Positions 24,799 to 30,771 of a stretch of 32,000 nucleotides of DNA are shown piece after piece. Made by a program: the position numbers and the translations under genes. The notes below the pieces were generated by a model. That model made no database searches. It saw only the letters and a list, made by a program, of their open reading frames with translations, and was not told the origin of the DNA. Every line of letters begins with the position of its first letter. Positions within the stretch are counted from its first letter, which is position 1. Source of the stretch: Candidatus Babelota bacterium (lineage in GTDB: Bacteria; Babelota; Babeliae; Babelales; Vermiphilaceae); the NCBI GenBank assembly GCA_039809905.1, contig JBDHVY010000001.1, forward strand, positions 540,001 to 572,000, given 5' to 3'.

Positions 24799-26316
24799 AT
24801 GAAATATATAACTACAATACTGCTATTTTTTTTCGCTATGGGGCATCTCATTAATGGCGAATTTCAACCTGCTGTCATAGCAAATGAGCGTCCCATTGTT
24901 GTAGTTGTATGTTCTTATAATAATGGTCAATGGTCAGAAAATACGCTTAAATCTATTTTTACACAAAATTATTCTAATTTTAGAGTAATCATTGTTGATG
25001 ATTGCTCTACCGATAACAACGTTGAAGTTATTCAAAAATTTATTGATGATTATGATCTTTCTGATCGCGTAACATTTATTAAAAATAGTAAGCGCCAACG
25101 TAAATTATTTAATCTTTATCGTGTTCTTTATGATTGTCATGATGATGAAATAGTGTTTATGGTTGATGGAGATGATTCAATAAATGGTTCTGATGTTTTT
25201 TCATATATCAATAGCATCTATAGCGATGAAGATGTCTGGTTTACCTATGGACAATATCGTAATGTTCCTGCATCTCAAGCAATTGCATGGGGCCATAAAG
25301 AAATGGGCTATTGCAGACCAGTACCCAAACATGTTCAGCGAAAACAAGCATATCGTTACTATAGTTTTATTTATATGCATCCTCGATCGTTTCGTGCATG
25401 GCTTTTTAAGATGGTAAAACTTGAAGATCTCATTGCTGATAAAATTGATTCTTTTGAAGGAGACTTTTACCCAGCAAGTAACGATGTTGCCATGTATTTC
25501 CCTATGGTAGAAATGGCACATACTCATATTAAATTTATTCCTGATATTCTTTATATAAGAAATCTATATTCAGAAATAGTTGGTTTTAAAGTTGATCGCA
25601 GAATCCAAACAGCCTCTGCGCGTGAAATTAGAAAAAAAAATAGTTATTCTGTGTTGTTTCAACCAAAAAAGTATAGACTCGATCATTTCGCAAAAGCATC
25701 TGCTGACGTGTTTATGCTGTGCAGAAATAATCTCACTAATATAGAAAGTATTTTGCAGATGATTGGACAAAAAACAACTAATCTGGGAAATATCTATCTC
25801 TTCTTTCAAAATACAATAGATAACAAAAAAATATGTCGTTTTATTAAAAAACGTTTTCCTCATGTTATTTTTGTTCCTTGCGATTTGAATGGCAACAAGG
25901 GCTTAAAAAGTAGACTTTTGGATTGCCTAAGTATAGCAAAAAATGAACACATATTGTTTGTAACAGATAGATCTTCCATCATAAAAAATATAGATTTTTC
26001 ACATTCTATTTTTTGGCTTGAAAAAACATTTGCGTATCGATTTTATTTCAATCGATACGCAACGCATGAAGGAGTACCAAAATTTATTCCACTCACAGAC
26101 AATGTGTGCGCATGGAAAATTAATAATGGCTCAAGCAAATGGAAAGGCACCACGCTTGATGATGCTTTCTTATGCCGAAAAACCTTTTTTTACCATGAAA
26201 TTAAAAAATTAGACTTCAGCAATGCATATAATTTTTTAAAAGAAATTCATTCATTAACACCTGCAACTTGCGTAGGATTATTCCCATATGATCCAACCAT
26301 TAGCGTTGCTAGTTGA
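24799..26316 (+). CDS. Family-2 glycosyltransferase (N-terminal GT2 domain plus ~240-aa unknown C-terminal domain)
   Basis: VVVCSYNNGQWSENTLKSIFTQNYSNFRVIIVDDCSTDN and MVDGDD. N-terminal MKYITTILLFFFAMGHLING. SD aaaagga. Confidence 0.75.
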   Translation: MKYITTILLFFFAMGHLINGEFQPAVIANERPIVVVVCSYNNGQWSENTLKSIFTQNYSNFRVIIVDDCSTDNNVEVIQKFIDDYDLSDRVTFIKNSKRQRKLFNLYRVLYDCHDDEIVFMVDGDDSINGSDVFSYINSIYSDEDVWFTYGQYRNVPASQAIAWGHKEMGYCRPVPKHVQRKQAYRYYSFIYMHPRSFRAWLFKMVKLEDLIADKIDSFEGDFYPASNDVAMYFPMVEMAHTHIKFIPDILYIRNLYSEIVGFKVDRRIQTASAREIRKKNSYSVLFQPKKYRLDHFAKASADVFMLCRNNLTNIESILQMIGQKTTNLGNIYLFFQNTIDNKKICRFIKKRFPHVIFVPCDLNGNKGLKSRLLDCLSIAKNEHILFVTDRSSIIKNIDFSHSIFWLEKTFAYRFYFNRYATHEGVPKFIPLTDNVCAWKINNGSSKWKGTTLDDAFLCRKTFFYHEIKKLDFSNAYNFLKEIHSLTPATCVGLFPYDPTISVAS

Positions 26317-27065
26317 ACCGTTTTGTTTTGCTTGCGCACTCTTTTACGAACATACTCTAATTGGGCAATTTTGTTTTTGATACCTTTGGTCCAATTAGCA
26401 TGATGCATAACAATGCCTGTGGGTACTGGTAAACTTCTTCCCGGCAGCCACAGGTATCCTGTTTTTCCTGTTAATGTTCCACCACCAAAAAAAATATTGG
26501 GTAAATACTCCCATGTCACATCATAAGGATTTTTTTTACTGTTTTTCTTAATACAACGATTAAAAGAATTTTGATCGCTATTAATTTTATCTTTTTGCAT
26601 AAGCTTCTTCACATCAGTCCATAGACGCAATGTTTTTTCATTGCCTCTGCATGCAAAAAAACCTGTACAAAGATCTCCTGCTGGATTATTTCTTTGCATT
26701 ACAATATCTTTGTCCTGCATAAGCTTAGTTATAATATCTTCAATCGGAGCGAAAAATTGAATATCTACATCTGAAAAGATAAACCATGAATCCCAATTTT
26801 CTTTGATCGCATCGATGATAAGATCAACTTTACGTATTGTTGTATCTGTCCATCCCTGACTCATAAATTGCGCAGATGGGCACGTTTGTTCAGCAAATCT
26901 AAAAATAATCTCAAAATCATCTTGTAATGAAGGCAAAAAATATGAATTTTTTAAAATCTCGTGAGAAGGAGTGTATAGTGCATAAAGCTTGATACGATCA
27001 CGAGCATAATTTTCGGTGGCTTGCATTACAATAAGGCATAGCAAGAATATATACATTCTTTTCAT
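26247..27065 (-). CDS. Putative nucleotide-diphospho-sugar transferase (DXD)
   Basis: WFIFSDVDIQFFAP (DXD), DIVMQRNN...LCTGFFACRGNEKT..LW, DQNSFN. N-terminal MKRMYIFLLCLIVMQA. SD aaggaa. The 3' end overlaps the GT2 gene by 70 nt. Confidence 0.5.
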   Translation of the reverse strand: MKRMYIFLLCLIVMQATENYARDRIKLYALYTPSHEILKNSYFLPSLQDDFEIIFRFAEQTCPSAQFMSQGWTDTTIRKVDLIIDAIKENWDSWFIFSDVDIQFFAPIEDIITKLMQDKDIVMQRNNPAGDLCTGFFACRGNEKTLRLWTDVKKLMQKDKINSDQNSFNRCIKKNSKKNPYDVTWEYLPNIFFGGGTLTGKTGYLWLPGRSLPVPTGIVMHHANWTKGIKNKIAQLEYVRKRVRKQNKTVQLATLMVGSYGNNPTQVAGVNE

Positions 27066-27161
27066 AACAATTTCCTTTTTTTTTATGATTGTGTTTTTTT
27101 ATCATGCTTATTACTTTAGCATTAAGCGTACGAAAAAAAAGATTTCAAAAAAAGGGTGGTC

Positions 27162-28457
27162 ATGAAACATATTTTTTTATTAGAAGTTATCAAAAAATTA
27201 GCTCATTTCTTATTTCAGCTCATTCCTTGCTGCGCTCGCCCTGAACTTGTTGAAGGGTATCCTTACGAGCGCTCGAAGATACCCTTCAACAAGTTCAGGG
27301 CGAGCGGGAGAATAAAATTAAAGACTTTAGATAATTCTGAATACTCAAAAAAAATCCTATTGAGAACATTATTAATCAATATGGTATTATTTAGCTGTGT
27401 TTTTATTAACATCTACGCTGAGGAAACTCCTGCCTATTATAGCGAAAATATCGATACTATTAGCGATGTTATGCAAGAAGTTGGCGATACAAATGTTTCC
27501 GCTCAAGAGAATCCTACACATCATAACGAATCAATTAATACTGGCGACGAGATTGTTGAAGATTTTAGCAATCGAGCAAACCAAAAAATTGGACCCAGTG
27601 CTATCACCTATAAATTAAACGGAGGGCGATTTGGTGATAATTTGGTTTCGTATTGCAAAGCAAAATTGCTTTCTCTATTATTTGATGTTCCATTGCTTTA
27701 TATGCCTTTCCCTTATTCCGATGAATTAATGATTCATCATAATGAAAAAATGTATACGCAAGAACAACACAAGCAATTTTATGCCACCGTACAATTAATT
27801 AAAAAGCCTCCCTACATCCTTTCAAAAAATAACAATACTCTTTATATCTCTCGCTGGAAAACAGAGATTACTATTGATTGGTCTGATCAGAACTTTTTAG
27901 AAGAAATAAAAAAAAATATTGCTCCGATCAACGAGCTTGAAAAAGTTATTATCCCTGAAGATTGTATTTCTGTTGCCGCACACGTACGCAATGGTGGAAG
28001 CTTTGCGGCAGATACTGCGCAAGAAAAAGAACGTTGCCCATTACGCTTTGTCCCCGAAGAATTTTTTATTGATCAAATACAACGAATCACTGAAATGTTT
28101 CCTGAAGGCAACATTTATGTTTATATTTTTACCGATCATGCAAAACCAAAAAAATTAATGAAAAAATTTAAAAATGCTCTTAATAATCCCCGCATTACTT
28201 TTGATTGCAGAATAGAAGGCAATAGTCACAAAGATAATGTTTTGGAAGACTTTTTTTCTATGATGGATTTTGATTGTCTCATTCGTCCTGGATCACATTA
28301 TTCACGTTTTGTGCAAAGACTTGGCAATAACAAAGTAGTGATTTTTCCCGAAAGTGTTAAAGAAATTAACGGGAAAAAAGTAATTGATACCATTAAGATA
28401 AAAACGCGACAAAGTAGCAGTGAAAAATGGAAAACACAAAAGATCATTATTGCATAA
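27162..28457 (+). CDS. Putative glycosyltransferase, fucosyltransferase-like motifs; start uncertain
   Basis: AAHVRNGGSF (cf. the HxRRGDY motif of GT11), YVYIFTDHAKP, EDFFSMMDFDCLIRPGSHYSRF. The long form starts at ATG 27162 (SD aaaggg) and reads through the palindrome. The signal-like segment LLRTLLINMVLFSCVFINIYA lies downstream of it, where the next in-frame ATG is 27381. Confidence 0.45.
   Translation: MKHIFLLEVIKKLAHFLFQLIPCCARPELVEGYPYERSKIPFNKFRASGRIKLKTLDNSEYSKKILLRTLLINMVLFSCVFINIYAEETPAYYSENIDTISDVMQEVGDTNVSAQENPTHHNESINTGDEIVEDFSNRANQKIGPSAITYKLNGGRFGDNLVSYCKAKLLSLLFDVPLLYMPFPYSDELMIHHNEKMYTQEQHKQFYATVQLIKKPPYILSKNNNTLYISRWKTEITIDWSDQNFLEEIKKNIAPINELEKVIIPEDCISVAAHVRNGGSFAADTAQEKERCPLRFVPEEFFIDQIQRITEMFPEGNIYVYIFTDHAKPKKLMKKFKNALNNPRITFDCRIEGNSHKDNVLEDFFSMMDFDCLIRPGSHYSRFVQRLGNNKVVIFPESVKEINGKKVIDTIKIKTRQSSSEKWKTQKIIIA
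27233..27306. repeat. GC-rich perfect palindromic element (MITE/RPE-like), 29-bp arms
   Basis: CGCTCGCCCTGAACTTGTTGAAGGGTATC (27233-61) is the exact reverse complement of GATACCCTTCAACAAGTTCAGGGCGAGCG (27278-306). The 16-nt spacer contains the palindrome CGAGCGCTCG. Confidence 0.9.
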
Positions 28458-28460
28458 ATA

Positions 28461-30593
28461 TCATTGTGGCTTTTTACCTAACCACGCTTTAGCTGTTGCT
28501 ATCCAGCGATTGATAAAATCTGGCAATATCACCGAATCAGAAGCTGGTAGTATATCTAATGGTTCTGATAATGATGGATATTCACCCAAAGATGGTGTAG
28601 GGGGTAACGTTGATGGCAATGACTCATAAGCAAGCGATTCTGATGGTAATGAAGATGACCACAATAGATCAGACAATAATTTTTTGATACTTTCTGGAAA
28701 GAAGTCTAAATTTTGATTTCCTATAGGATTTGCTCCCAAACACATTTGATAGAGAGGCATTAGTAAATTCCAATCGTAATTATTTATCTGTTTCAAGATT
28801 TGATCTTCTTCATCAGTTAATAAAGTCCATAAGGTTAAATTGCATCTCGAATCAGCCAGCCATGATCTGTCAGGAATACTCGTTGTAACCAATTTCTTGC
28901 CGTCATGGCTCCAAGCCACTGAAGTATAGTAAAAATCTTTAGATTCTGGAATTGTATAATGTGTTATATGATCATAATCACTTATATTCCAAAATAGAAT
29001 CCGATTACCATTATTTTCATAGTTTATAGAAACCATTGTACTGCTATCAGGACTGAAAGCTATAGCATTACTATTATATCCAAGTTCTAATTGGAAAATC
29101 TTAGGCAATCTCCAGAAATTTTCTTGCTGCTTTATGAGGTTTTTATGAGTTATGTTATTCCTGTCATCAATATCCCACAAAATAAGACTCCGCTCAGACA
29201 GCGGATTAGTTCCTCTTTCTCCATCATCGCCATGTGAGACAATTTTTGTTGTATCTGGACTAAATTTTACTTCATACACATTCGGCTGAGCAGTAAGGCC
29301 TATTGCCTGCAAAGTAGATACATCCCATATTTTCACATTTTTCTCATCACCCATTCCTCCTGAAACAACCTCCGTCGAATCAGCATTAAATGCCATGCAA
29401 TTAACAAGTCCCTTATAATTTCCTATAAATTTTTTGATTGTTCCTTCACGTCTATCAGTATGTATCTCGGTCATAGTAATATTGTCTCCTTTAGCAAAGG
29501 AACTGACTAATATTTTGGTACCATCTGGACTAACTACCACAGACCGAACTATTGCACCTTCAAGTTTCTTTACTTTCAAATCATCTTTTTTGGATAAATA
29601 GCCTTGGCTTCCAATCATTATTTTCAATTCACCAACAGAATTCAGGTAAATAAGAGATTGGTCATCAGAAGGAATAGTTACCGACACAACAGATTCAGCT
29701 CCCTCAAAAGAAAATAATTTTTTACCTGTTAAATCACATATAGTAAGATATTCGCGAACATTTCTAGGAGTGAATTTATGTCCAAAGATAATCTTAGAAT
29801 CATCTGCACTAAACATTGCGCAGGTAAAATATTCATTGTTTTTCTGCATTTTTTCTGAGACTATTATTTTTTTTCTTTTTTGCGCATACTTTTGAATAAT
29901 CAGGTCTTTTAACCATTGCTTAATTGGTCCAACCACTAATAATTTTTGTACATCAACGTTCAGCTCTGCAAATTTATCATCTCTGATGATGTTATTATTT
30001 TCGTATACTCTTTTTTTTATTTCAGCATACATTGCTTCTTCAATAGTTCGACCACAGCTTAAGAATTTAATACAATCAATAGCATCAATAAGTCGACCTA
30101 ACGAATATTTTTCTATGATGCTTGTTATGTTATTTTTTTGTGACAATGTATCTTGACCCTCAAGATATTGCGTAAAAATAGCATAAATATCTTTAATCAC
30201 TCTATTAGAATAAGAAAGCGGAATTTCAATCTTTTCCGATGAATCAGGACCTTCTATCATGTCTTTTAAAGTATCACTCACCTCAAGTACACGCTGCGAA
30301 AAATAAACTCCCTCAGATGAGAGCTCATTGGGATCACTTGAATACACAAAAATTTCATTGTTTTTAAATTCTGGCTGCACTTGTTTATCAACCGTTTCAA
30401 CGGACGATGCTTCTTTATTAAGTCTTTCAACAAAAGATGCTATCTCTTTCATTTGCCTCAATCGTAGATACTCAGGAAGAAGAGATTGAGGCAAAACTTC
30501 ATCATCTTTATTTTCCATTCCTGCGACATCACAGGAAACACATAACACAATTAAACACAGTAAATAGAACTTTTTATTGCTGAAATAATTCAT
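28461..30593 (-). CDS. WD40-type seven-blade beta-propeller protein with signal-like N-terminus and possible Skp1/BTB-POZ-like segment
   Basis: About 7 repeats of the pattern hxxhxFSPDxxxhh...h.hW (VKFSPDTTKIVSHG...LILWDI, IAFSPDSSTMVS...ILFWNI, VAWSHDGKKLVTTS...LTLWTL, etc.). N-proximal EVSDTLKDMIEGPDSSEKIEIPLSYSNRVIKDIYAIFTQY resembles Skp1/POZ. The GAGGA SD favours the ATG at 30593 (MNYFSNKKFYLLCLIVLCVS) over the TTG at 30605. Confidence 0.75.
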   Translation of the reverse strand: MNYFSNKKFYLLCLIVLCVSCDVAGMENKDDEVLPQSLLPEYLRLRQMKEIASFVERLNKEASSVETVDKQVQPEFKNNEIFVYSSDPNELSSEGVYFSQRVLEVSDTLKDMIEGPDSSEKIEIPLSYSNRVIKDIYAIFTQYLEGQDTLSQKNNITSIIEKYSLGRLIDAIDCIKFLSCGRTIEEAMYAEIKKRVYENNNIIRDDKFAELNVDVQKLLVVGPIKQWLKDLIIQKYAQKRKKIIVSEKMQKNNEYFTCAMFSADDSKIIFGHKFTPRNVREYLTICDLTGKKLFSFEGAESVVSVTIPSDDQSLIYLNSVGELKIMIGSQGYLSKKDDLKVKKLEGAIVRSVVVSPDGTKILVSSFAKGDNITMTEIHTDRREGTIKKFIGNYKGLVNCMAFNADSTEVVSGGMGDEKNVKIWDVSTLQAIGLTAQPNVYEVKFSPDTTKIVSHGDDGERGTNPLSERSLILWDIDDRNNITHKNLIKQQENFWRLPKIFQLELGYNSNAIAFSPDSSTMVSINYENNGNRILFWNISDYDHITHYTIPESKDFYYTSVAWSHDGKKLVTTSIPDRSWLADSRCNLTLWTLLTDEEDQILKQINNYDWNLLMPLYQMCLGANPIGNQNLDFFPESIKKLLSDLLWSSSLPSESLAYESLPSTLPPTPSLGEYPSLSEPLDILPASDSVILPDFINRWIATAKAWLGKKPQ

Positions 30594-30771
30594 ACGATTC
30601 CTCAATTAAACTCATTTAATTATCAAAATCCTATCAAGTATTTATCATAAGATATATTCAAAAAGAAAATCAATAAATCGTTTTTATAGTAAAAAACAGC
30701 TGAAAAGGTACTTGATTTCTTAAACAAAAAGAATATAGAGTTAGATCATATTTTAATCAAAAGGAATGCAT

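Follow-up and report, generated by a model that had tools for sequence, protein, structure and literature searches.

A hairpin repeat and its probable GIY-YIG nuclease partner, with an in-frame copy in a signal-peptide gene of a Candidatus Babelota bacterium

The closest described counterpart of the system reported here is found in Neisseria, where SsnA, a single-domain GIY-YIG protein of 94 amino acids (CDD cd10448), cuts only single-stranded DNA (ssDNA), beside the NTS hairpin; the published account also describes the ssnA genes of many bacteria as flanked by related SRM repeats, and its authors liken the NTS-ssnA-NTS arrangement to an insertion sequence (Chenal et al., Nat Commun 2025, PMC11893778). 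Comparable architectures are offered by the REP/REPIN sequences with their RAYT enzymes (Nunvar 2010; Bertels and Rainey 2011) and, for insertion in frame, by the palindromic elements of Rickettsia. The present study concerns a 74-nt palindrome located at 27233-27306 of a 32,000-nt stretch of DNA from a Candidatus Babelota bacterium (the window, which is the whole stretch analysed), corresponding to positions 540001-572000 of a genome made of a single contig (1,228,744 bp, 34.3% G+C, 98.6% complete). The palindrome is an inverted, non-coding doublet: two opposed units of a hairpin repeat of about 40 nt that share a central GCGC stem. This repeat is probably the cognate DNA element of a small nuclease, here designated GHTD-type GIY-YIG, and a version of it of about 180 nt has probably been inserted in frame within the signal-peptide region of a gene for a secreted protein.

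The two arms of the palindrome, identified by inverted-repeat detection on the plus strand with no match in shuffled sequences, are 29 nt long and 100% complementary: the left arm, CGCTCGCCCTGAACTTGTTGAAGGGTATC (27233..27261), is followed by its exact reverse complement at 27278..27306, and the 16-nt spacer between them (27262..27277) contains the 10-bp palindrome CGAGCGCTCG (27266-27275), which provides the closing stem common to both unit hairpins. The arm sequence is unique within the window and absent from all of 100 window shuffles. This geometry agrees with that reported in the initial annotation, as does the composition, the element having 55% G+C against 28% in the 200-nt flanks and 35% in the window. 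Unit hairpin 1 (27232..27272, plus strand) has the structure GCGCTCG / CCCT - loop GAACTTGTTGA (27243-27253) - AGGG / ...CGAGCGC; unit hairpin 2 (27269..27307, minus strand), with the complement of the loop at 27286-27296, overlaps it in the central GCGC stem. In computed folds as ssDNA, the whole region forms one hairpin of -39.5 kcal/mol (z = -13.9), and unit 1 alone reaches -8.9 kcal/mol.

The element had been suspected of being multicopy; indeed, BLAST searches with the arm sequence identified about 19 sites in the 1.23-Mb genome, and dozens are present in relatives of the genus. The copies comprise five further inverted doublets (at 145.9, 244.1, 273.7, 395.9 and 1048.6 kb), about ten single units, and mosaics joining the unit to other GC-rich modules. 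Their alignment gives the unit GCGCTC[G/A]-YYCT-GAACTTGTTGA-AGRR-(0-8 nt)-[C/T]GAGCGC, which as a lone hairpin with an 11-nt loop has a computed folding energy of -9 to -10 kcal/mol. The loop is invariant, with the consensus GARCTTGTYGA (GAACTTGTTGA in this genome, GAGCTTGTCGA elsewhere), and the stem shows compensating changes among copies (CCCT/AGGG, TCCT/AGGA, TTCT/AGAA and CCTT/AAGG). In four hybrid doublets of relatives, whose two unit types differ, pairing is kept within each unit and the inter-arm hairpin is mismatched, indicating that the selected structure is the unit hairpin and not the 29-bp stem. The copies of this genome lie between open reading frames (ORFs), except the one in the window and the one that forms the tail of the nuclease ORF; a mosaic module at 525.6 kb overlaps merely a probably spurious 5′ extension of one ORF.

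Within the genus, the core CCTGAACTTGTTGAAGG, with at most two mismatches allowed, was matched 30-112 times in nine of ten genomes (0-1 times by the reversed-pattern control) and not at all in the genome G001; matches to the motif numbered 25 to about 150 in eight of nine congeners, the reversed-pattern controls again giving almost none. Full doublets of 72-76 nt, 83-93% identical, occur by dozens in five congeners, whose orthologous proteins are only 55-70% identical; thus, the repeat is more conserved across species than the proteins are, which implies that its sequence is held constant or exchanged. A variant core, CCTGAGCTTGTCGAAGG, is present in other genera of the family and of the order, and its six frames spell PELVEG, LSLSK, FDKLR, LRQAQ and STSSG; the sequence of the corresponding GC-type unit is CCGTTCGCCCTGAGCTTGTCGAAGGGCGAACGG. 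The VRPELVEG/PFDKLRANG repeat, which the initial annotation had named as widespread, is real: it has the GC-rich form CCTGAGCTTGTCGAAGG in place of the CCTGAACTTGTTGAAGG found here, and occurs in relatives of the same order and in at least ten other phyla. Judged by its sequence, the copy in this genome can be described as an A+T-shifted form of that repeat, with two transitions in the loop and an altered outer stem.

Other forms of the repeat were also encountered. A palindromic variant core, CCTGAACTTGTTTCAGG, is present in about 20-45 copies in genomes of two other genera (G020 and G030), and may represent a derived type of repeat that has a nuclease specificity of its own. In this genome, mosaic GC-rich arrays (C1:1176945-1177050, 1007505-1007650, 1014455-1014590 and 273811-273880) consist of the unit followed by a recurrent module, AGCGAGAAATGAACGCAGTGTTTACTGCTGAGCTTGTCGAAGTATCAGGGCGAGCGC; since this module holds the GC-type core, both motif variants coexist in composites resembling bacterial interspersed mosaic elements. 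Two additional elements, of 132 nt (C1:1060654-1060785) and 57 nt (C1:525584-525640), have identical 12-nt termini (CGCTCGCCCTGA...TCAGGGCGAGCG) and unrelated interiors, suggesting that the outer stem is an end common to several element types.

The proposed partner is encoded at 1,125,757-1,126,101, 558 kb from the palindrome, by the only GHTD-type nuclease gene of the genome. Its ORF has 114 codons, of which the first 98, at 1,125,757-1,126,050, code for a GIY-YIG domain (PF01541, E = 6.5e-19) and for no other domain; it carries the signature ...YY.GHTD...ERQIKGWSRKKKEA...DW, the catalytic residues Y8, Y18, R28, H32 and E66 fall in invariant alignment columns, and the closest solved structures are the UPF0213 proteins 1ZG2 and 1YWL. 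The gene is bracketed by two units in inverted orientation, at 1125702 (+) and 1126088 (-), and the ORF tail, ...SALILQQVQDERGEDS, is the read-through of the right-hand one. The same arrangement, with a + unit about 45 nt before the start and a - unit about 20 nt after the domain, accompanies every homologue of at least 70% identity in the relatives, and is shared by several at about 50-55% identity. These cassettes occupy unrelated gene contexts, both between and within genomes. G010 contains two nuclease paralogues, 95% identical, at different sites, and the gltX-fabD junction holds the cassette in the genome studied here, an empty 45-nt spacer in G009, and repeats without the nuclease in G004. 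A second, different small GIY-YIG gene (MFYYVYLIQS...TKKDRPWKL...), at C1:772371-772583, is not flanked by the studied repeat; it has an in-frame TGA where a truncated copy, at C1:508427-508534, has CGT (Arg), and these may be a pseudogene and a fragment that belong to another family of GIY-YIG elements.

The association between nuclease and repeat extends far beyond the genus. A protein search with the nuclease retrieved 3459 relatives, with homologues at about 60% identity from cyanobacteria, gammaproteobacteria, Binatia and others; the annotated homologues that run past the domain bear motif-derived tails (...SFDKLRTNG, ...LRQAQDER, ...HPSTSSG and ...PPFDKLRANG), read-throughs of the FDKLR, LRQAQ and PSTSSG types. 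A scan with a domain profile (alignment A1), using one genome per species, identified 80 homologue loci in at least 10 phyla, including Desulfobacterota, alpha-, beta- and gammaproteobacteria, Campylobacterota, Cyanobacteria, Nitrospirota, Chloroflexota, Bacteroidota, Fibrobacterota, Myxococcota and Dependentiae. A + motif was present within 150 nt upstream in 30 of the 80 loci (mostly at 21-52 nt) and a - motif within 200 nt downstream in 40 (mostly at 17-35 nt); both were found in 22, where the chance expectation was estimated at less than 0.1 locus. Across phyla the unit reads CCGTTCG-NNC-T-GAGCYTGTCGA-A-GNN(-GAACGG), with a 5′ flank conserved in sequence, an invariant loop and a covarying stem. 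Among 90 distinct units, chosen by a pattern over columns 10-25, which leaves only columns 7-9 and 26-27 independent of that choice, 88.7% of the cells of the 5-bp inner stem pair, a value matched by none of 500 shuffles and compared with at most 56% in slid controls; the stem pair 8-26 is CG in 30 units, UA in 29, GC in 14 and UG in 8. Finally, among 151 Dependentiae genomes, at least five copies of the motif occur in 32 of the 50 with the nuclease (profile E <= 1e-18) and in 12 of the 101 without it; the resulting odds ratio of about 13, obtained from co-occurrences counted by hand, is descriptive and overstated, since kin genomes are not independent.

These features recall the Ssn/NTS system, in which, as here, a single-domain GIY-YIG protein of about 95 amino acids (with a 98-aa core here) is encoded by a gene bracketed by inverted hairpin repeats of 20-50 nt; in both cases many further copies of the repeat are dispersed, mostly in intergenic positions, the system is found in many phyla with enrichment in symbionts, and the conserved 5′ flank gives the repeat an orientation (CCGTTCG, or GCGCTCG in this genome, and CGTCAT in NTS). 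The present system differs by the invariant 11-nt loop, by a protein clade of its own, and by prominent inverted doublets and in-frame insertions. Indeed, the SRM consensus HGTCWYN(0-2)YYVSBRHN(0-5)WNVSBRGN(0-2)RNCYNB, in an implementation that matched NTS and SRM-flanked genes as positive control, was absent from the 1.23-Mb genome, the cassette included, and from the 200 nt around each of the 80 homologues, for which reason the repeat is not classed as an SRM. Five sphingomonad genomes with a GHTD homologue hold further small GIY-YIG genes, five of which are SRM-flanked in the canonical arrangement; in a maximum-likelihood tree of 26 GHTD-type and 14 SRM-associated-type proteins, built without N. 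meningitidis SsnA, the branch separating the two types had 99/100 support and all five SRM-flanked proteins fell in the latter. Identity is 25-33% across this split, compared with 47-76% within the GHTD type, and the SRM-associated proteins have a signature of their own (...GTLY.GVT...REK.K.W.R.WK..LIE..NP.W.DL). Since SRM-flanked genes (L193, L203, L204, L208 and L212, in G041 and G045) occur in the same genomes as GHTD genes that have the CTGAGCYTGTCGAAG repeat on their flanks, these genomes hold two pairs of nuclease and repeat. Our reading is that the GHTD system would be a sister to Ssn, distinct in both protein clade and hairpin, and that its presumed cleavage of ssDNA is assigned by analogy.

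The REP/REPIN-RAYT systems are similar in having GC-rich hairpins present as singles, doublets and mosaics, mostly extragenic, with an enzyme gene flanked by its own repeats and without consistent terminal duplications. In the present case, however, the partner is a GIY-YIG nuclease and not a Y1 HUH transposase, and the repeat has no GTAG or CGTC head; as no match to Y1_Tnp (PF01797) was found in the contig, 98.6% complete, a RAYT/REPIN system was ruled out. The Rickettsia palindromic elements share with the element described here the palindromic repeat, a reduced intracellular bacterium as host, and the insertion in frame into genes that remain intact, such as the downstream gene of the window and the tilS gene of a congener described below; on the other hand, they measure 100-150 bp and most copies here are intergenic, and the likeness is drawn as an analogy. 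No partner enzyme was reportedly established for them at first description. As regards classical miniature inverted-repeat transposable elements, which derive by deletion from DDE insertion sequences, inverted ends are present, together with a possible 9-nt duplication at the locus of the window and none above chance at nine cassettes. A literature search for the motif and its derived peptides returned only primer coincidences, and among the papers searched none describing the system was found.

As initially described, the copy in the window lies between the divergent genes at 26247-27065 (minus strand) and 27162-28457 (plus strand), and is free of stops in the frame of the second one, which codes for a secreted protein with a GGRFGD motif and whose ORF is open through the element from 27156/27162. 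The divergent intergenic region, of 64-96 nt, is alignable across ten genomes of the genus and metagenome contigs, and the start of the gene is conserved, with an AAAGGR ribosome-binding-like motif followed by ATG AAA NAT ATT TTT TTA TT; in this genome, the ancestral, positionally orthologous ATG is at 27162..27164 (plus strand), after an AAAGGG motif (27151-27159). In nine genus orthologues and in metagenome relatives, this start runs directly into the hydrophobic signal core and the repeat motif is absent. These orthologous sites were thus found empty, including that of the metagenome contig L178, whose N-terminal region is the most similar among such contigs and reads MKNIFLL followed directly by RKVIIITFTAFNVLFFYTYA, the uninterrupted signal peptide of the relatives being MKNIFLL followed by RKVII.... 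In the protein of this genome, aligned with six relatives, 60 residues separate MKHIFLL from the signal-like hydrophobic core RTLLINMVLFSCVFINIYA (27363..27419, plus strand), the orthologue of the h-region in the signal peptides of the relatives.

Compared as DNA, this genome and L178 are homologous up to TATT-AGAA (27178-27185) and again from TATTGAGAA (27358-27366). Compared with the uninterrupted relatives, the insert is in frame after codon 7 and spans 27187..27366 on the plus strand (180 nt, 60 codons), with the palindrome at its centre. A palindrome core of 76 nt is accompanied on either side by an AT-rich arm of 44-49 nt, and these arms are partly common to the copies at 273.7 kb and 1048.6 kb of the same genome; without the insert, the allele would read ...TTTTTTTATTGAGAACATTATTA.... 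The length of the palindrome itself, 74 nt, is not divisible by three, two of its three forward frames are stop-free, and in the frame of the ORF it reads CARPELVEGYPYERSKIPFNKFRASG. By chance, the frame would be open across the insert with an estimated probability of about 0.035, the product of 2/3 for the core and of the expectation for 49 AT-rich codons at a stop-trinucleotide frequency of 0.058.

The initial annotation had left open whether the element contributes an N-terminal extension or sits in the 5′ untranslated region. Comparison with the orthologues places it inside the ancestral coding 5′ end, downstream of the orthologous start and ribosome-binding site. A promoter-like site (TTCATA-17-TATGAT, 27061..27089, plus strand), recognised by consensus match only, lies in the conserved intergenic region upstream of the element and is the sole one identified, none being found between the element and 27381; moreover, no purine-rich motif precedes either TTG 27360 or ATG 27381. 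Because the promoter-like site, the ribosome-binding site and the ATG are conserved upstream and the insert is stop-free, translation most likely starts at 27162 and would read through the insert, giving an N-terminal extension of 60 residues. These residues precede KKILLR-TLLINMVLFSCVFINIYA, that is, positive charges before an intact hydrophobic stretch; with both elements preserved, export could proceed through an internal signal or a signal-anchor. An insert carrying a duplicated ribosome-binding site and start was also considered and rejected, the local alignment of 27110-27186 with 27309-27400 scoring 18 against a shuffle mean of 16.3.

In-frame insertion into genes, which had been proposed by likeness to Rickettsia, recurs in a congener. 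In G008, a 72-nt doublet lies in frame within the linker of tRNA(Ile)-lysidine synthase, coded by tilS (C1; L088:1503-1590), and reads ...CARPELVEGYPRALKETLQQVQGER...; the tilS of the genome studied here (C1:1001800-1002627, minus strand) aligns on both sides, with a gap exactly at the doublet. A second in-frame insertion at an N-terminus may be that in murG of G006 (C1; L064:1519-1600), whose open 5′ end holds a doublet 13 codons downstream of a possible start, MNIIKLILFISFL; the conserved MurG N-terminus follows 12 codons later, and no ATG intervenes.

Several observations weigh against the proposed partnership and the insertion that is attributed to it, besides the non-independence of the Dependentiae genomes mentioned above. 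The link between nuclease and repeat is an association; 18 nuclease-positive Dependentiae genomes have fewer than five copies of this motif variant, and G005 has 36 copies of the motif and no GHTD nuclease above threshold. At nine cassettes, the best direct repeats were no longer than in shuffles, and no target-site duplication was visible in 20 doublets inspected, which show a weak extension of the palindrome, pyrimidine-rich at the 5′ side and purine-rich at the 3′ side, a pattern at odds with simple cut-and-paste. A search for target-site duplications had been advised in the initial annotation; a possible one of 8-9 nt frames the insert of the window, whose ends are flanked or partly covered by TATTAGAAG (27178-27186) and TATTGAGAA (27358-27366), but it stands as one case and the DNA alignment on the right-hand side is not significant by itself. 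In addition, translation of the secreted protein might start internally, at TTG 27360 or ATG 27381, instead of reading through the insert.

In spite of these points, we regard as probable that the repeat is the cognate element of the GHTD-type nuclease. By analogy with Ssn/NTS, the enzyme probably recognises the hairpin in ssDNA and nicks beside it, and the gene cassette as well as the doublets without a gene are probably spread by this nicking or by the ensuing repair; the dependence of this spread on the nuclease is our inference. In the window, a version of about 180 nt would have been inserted after codon 7, between the charged start and the hydrophobic core of the signal peptide, and its read-through would yield an extension ahead of the intact export segment. 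That the element is mobile is indicated by its presence or absence at three orthologous sites and by the variety of its contexts. A stronger proposal, which we advance tentatively and consider somewhat unlikely as it stands, is that the GHTD-type GIY-YIG protein is itself the mobilising enzyme of a minimal hairpin-ended element, borne by ssDNA, crossing phyla, able to settle in frame and acting as the source of junk peptides. The autonomous form would then be the cassette of about 390 nt, with the nuclease gene between two hairpins, and the non-autonomous forms would be the 72-76-nt doublets; movement would take place without target duplication, and the junk peptides would be those ubiquitous in protein databases as FDKLRANG, LRQAQGER, PSTSSG and VRPELVEG.

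The best surviving alternative, although in our opinion an unlikely one, is that nuclease and repeats form a domesticated host system that marks DNA for single-strand cleavage, for instance limiting recombination or the uptake of incoming DNA as proposed for Neisseria SsnA/NTS, and that is not currently mobile, the copy in the signal peptide being an old neutral relic. This would agree with the function put forward in the published account of the closest known system (PMC11893778), with the single nuclease gene of this genome, and with the identity of 85-93% among copies where the proteins are 55-70% identical, which implies selection on the sequence. On the other hand, the positions of cassettes and doublets differ among all the genomes compared, and the nearly identical paralogous cassettes of G010 are at different sites. 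These intracellular bacteria are not known to be naturally competent, which also counts against such a role. A domesticated function would nonetheless be compatible with mobility.

Considerably less probable is that the palindrome is a REP-like RNA element (a stabiliser of mRNA, a source of small RNA (sRNA) or a translational barrier in the 5′ part of the message) whose spread is unrelated to the GIY-YIG gene. The hairpin is strong and nearly all copies of this genome are intergenic; moreover, the element has a significant, sub-threshold match to Rfam RF02901 (AaHKsRNA41, Aggregatibacter sRNA 41), with scores of 47.1 and 42.7 bits (E = 7e-10 and 1e-8). The RF02901 consensus, a long hairpin with GCUGAgCUUGcCGAAGC and its complement in the arms, is a doublet of the same repeat family, which would be transcribed in Aggregatibacter. 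However, 47.1 bits is well below the gathering threshold of 97, which excludes membership; the family is annotated as an sRNA with no repeat or nuclease mentioned, and its source paper (Oogai et al., DNA Res 2018, PMC5909427) makes no mention of sRNA41, repeats or palindromes. The palindrome has no U-tract, and an RNA role does not account for the tight placement of the repeat around the nuclease gene, seen in at least 10 phyla. A function as terminator was discarded, as no terminator-like site was found at the locus. Finally, that the insert is a selected peptide module or new N-terminal domain, as once proposed for the Rickettsia elements, is very improbable: the frame is open over 60 codons and congeners have in-frame copies in tilS and perhaps in the 5′ end of murG, but the frames differ by site (the second arm reads PFNKFRASG here and LQQVQGER in G008 tilS), most copies are intergenic, and nine genus orthologues and the metagenome relatives have no insert.

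As for the genomic surroundings, the interrupted gene, initially labelled as a glycosyltransferase, had no sequence match in Pfam, NCBIfam or PDB, and that label is unconfirmed; its neighbours are glycosyltransferases, and the order GT2 - sugar transferase (minus strand) - gene (plus strand) is kept in the genus. The divergent neighbour (26247..27065, minus strand), whose synteny is also maintained, is a nucleotide-diphospho-sugar transferase (PF03407). Three adjacent genes of sugar-transferase type, on alternating strands and each with a signal-like N-terminus, occupy 24799-28457 of the window; they are followed, at 28461-30605 (minus strand), by a gene for a 714-aa protein with a signal-like N-terminus and eukaryote-type WD40 repeats (PF00400, E = 2e-14). 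Eukaryote-type WD40 proteins are typical of protist-associated Dependentiae.

The architecture described here is of an already known kind, Ssn-like and REPIN-like, of which the pair formed by a distinct nuclease clade and its hairpin is a new form. It is a second nuclease/hairpin pair, phylogenetically apart from Ssn/NTS, and the combination of an invariant 11-nt loop with a freely covarying stem makes the enzyme an attractive candidate for a new sequence-specific ssDNA nuclease. In bacterial annotation, spurious ORFs and odd protein tails come from the GC-rich form of the repeat more often than from most other sources, such as FDKLRANG, LRQAQGER, PSTSSG, VRPELVEG and LSLSKH; its link to a defined nuclease clade explains the origin of these peptides and supplies a rule for masking them. 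For the bacterium itself, the locus represents a natural experiment, in which 60 codons inserted between the charged start and the hydrophobic core of a signal peptide are tolerated. Whether a GIY-YIG enzyme can mobilise bacterial DNA becomes a testable question and, if this proved true, such an enzyme would constitute a new class of bacterial transposase-like proteins.

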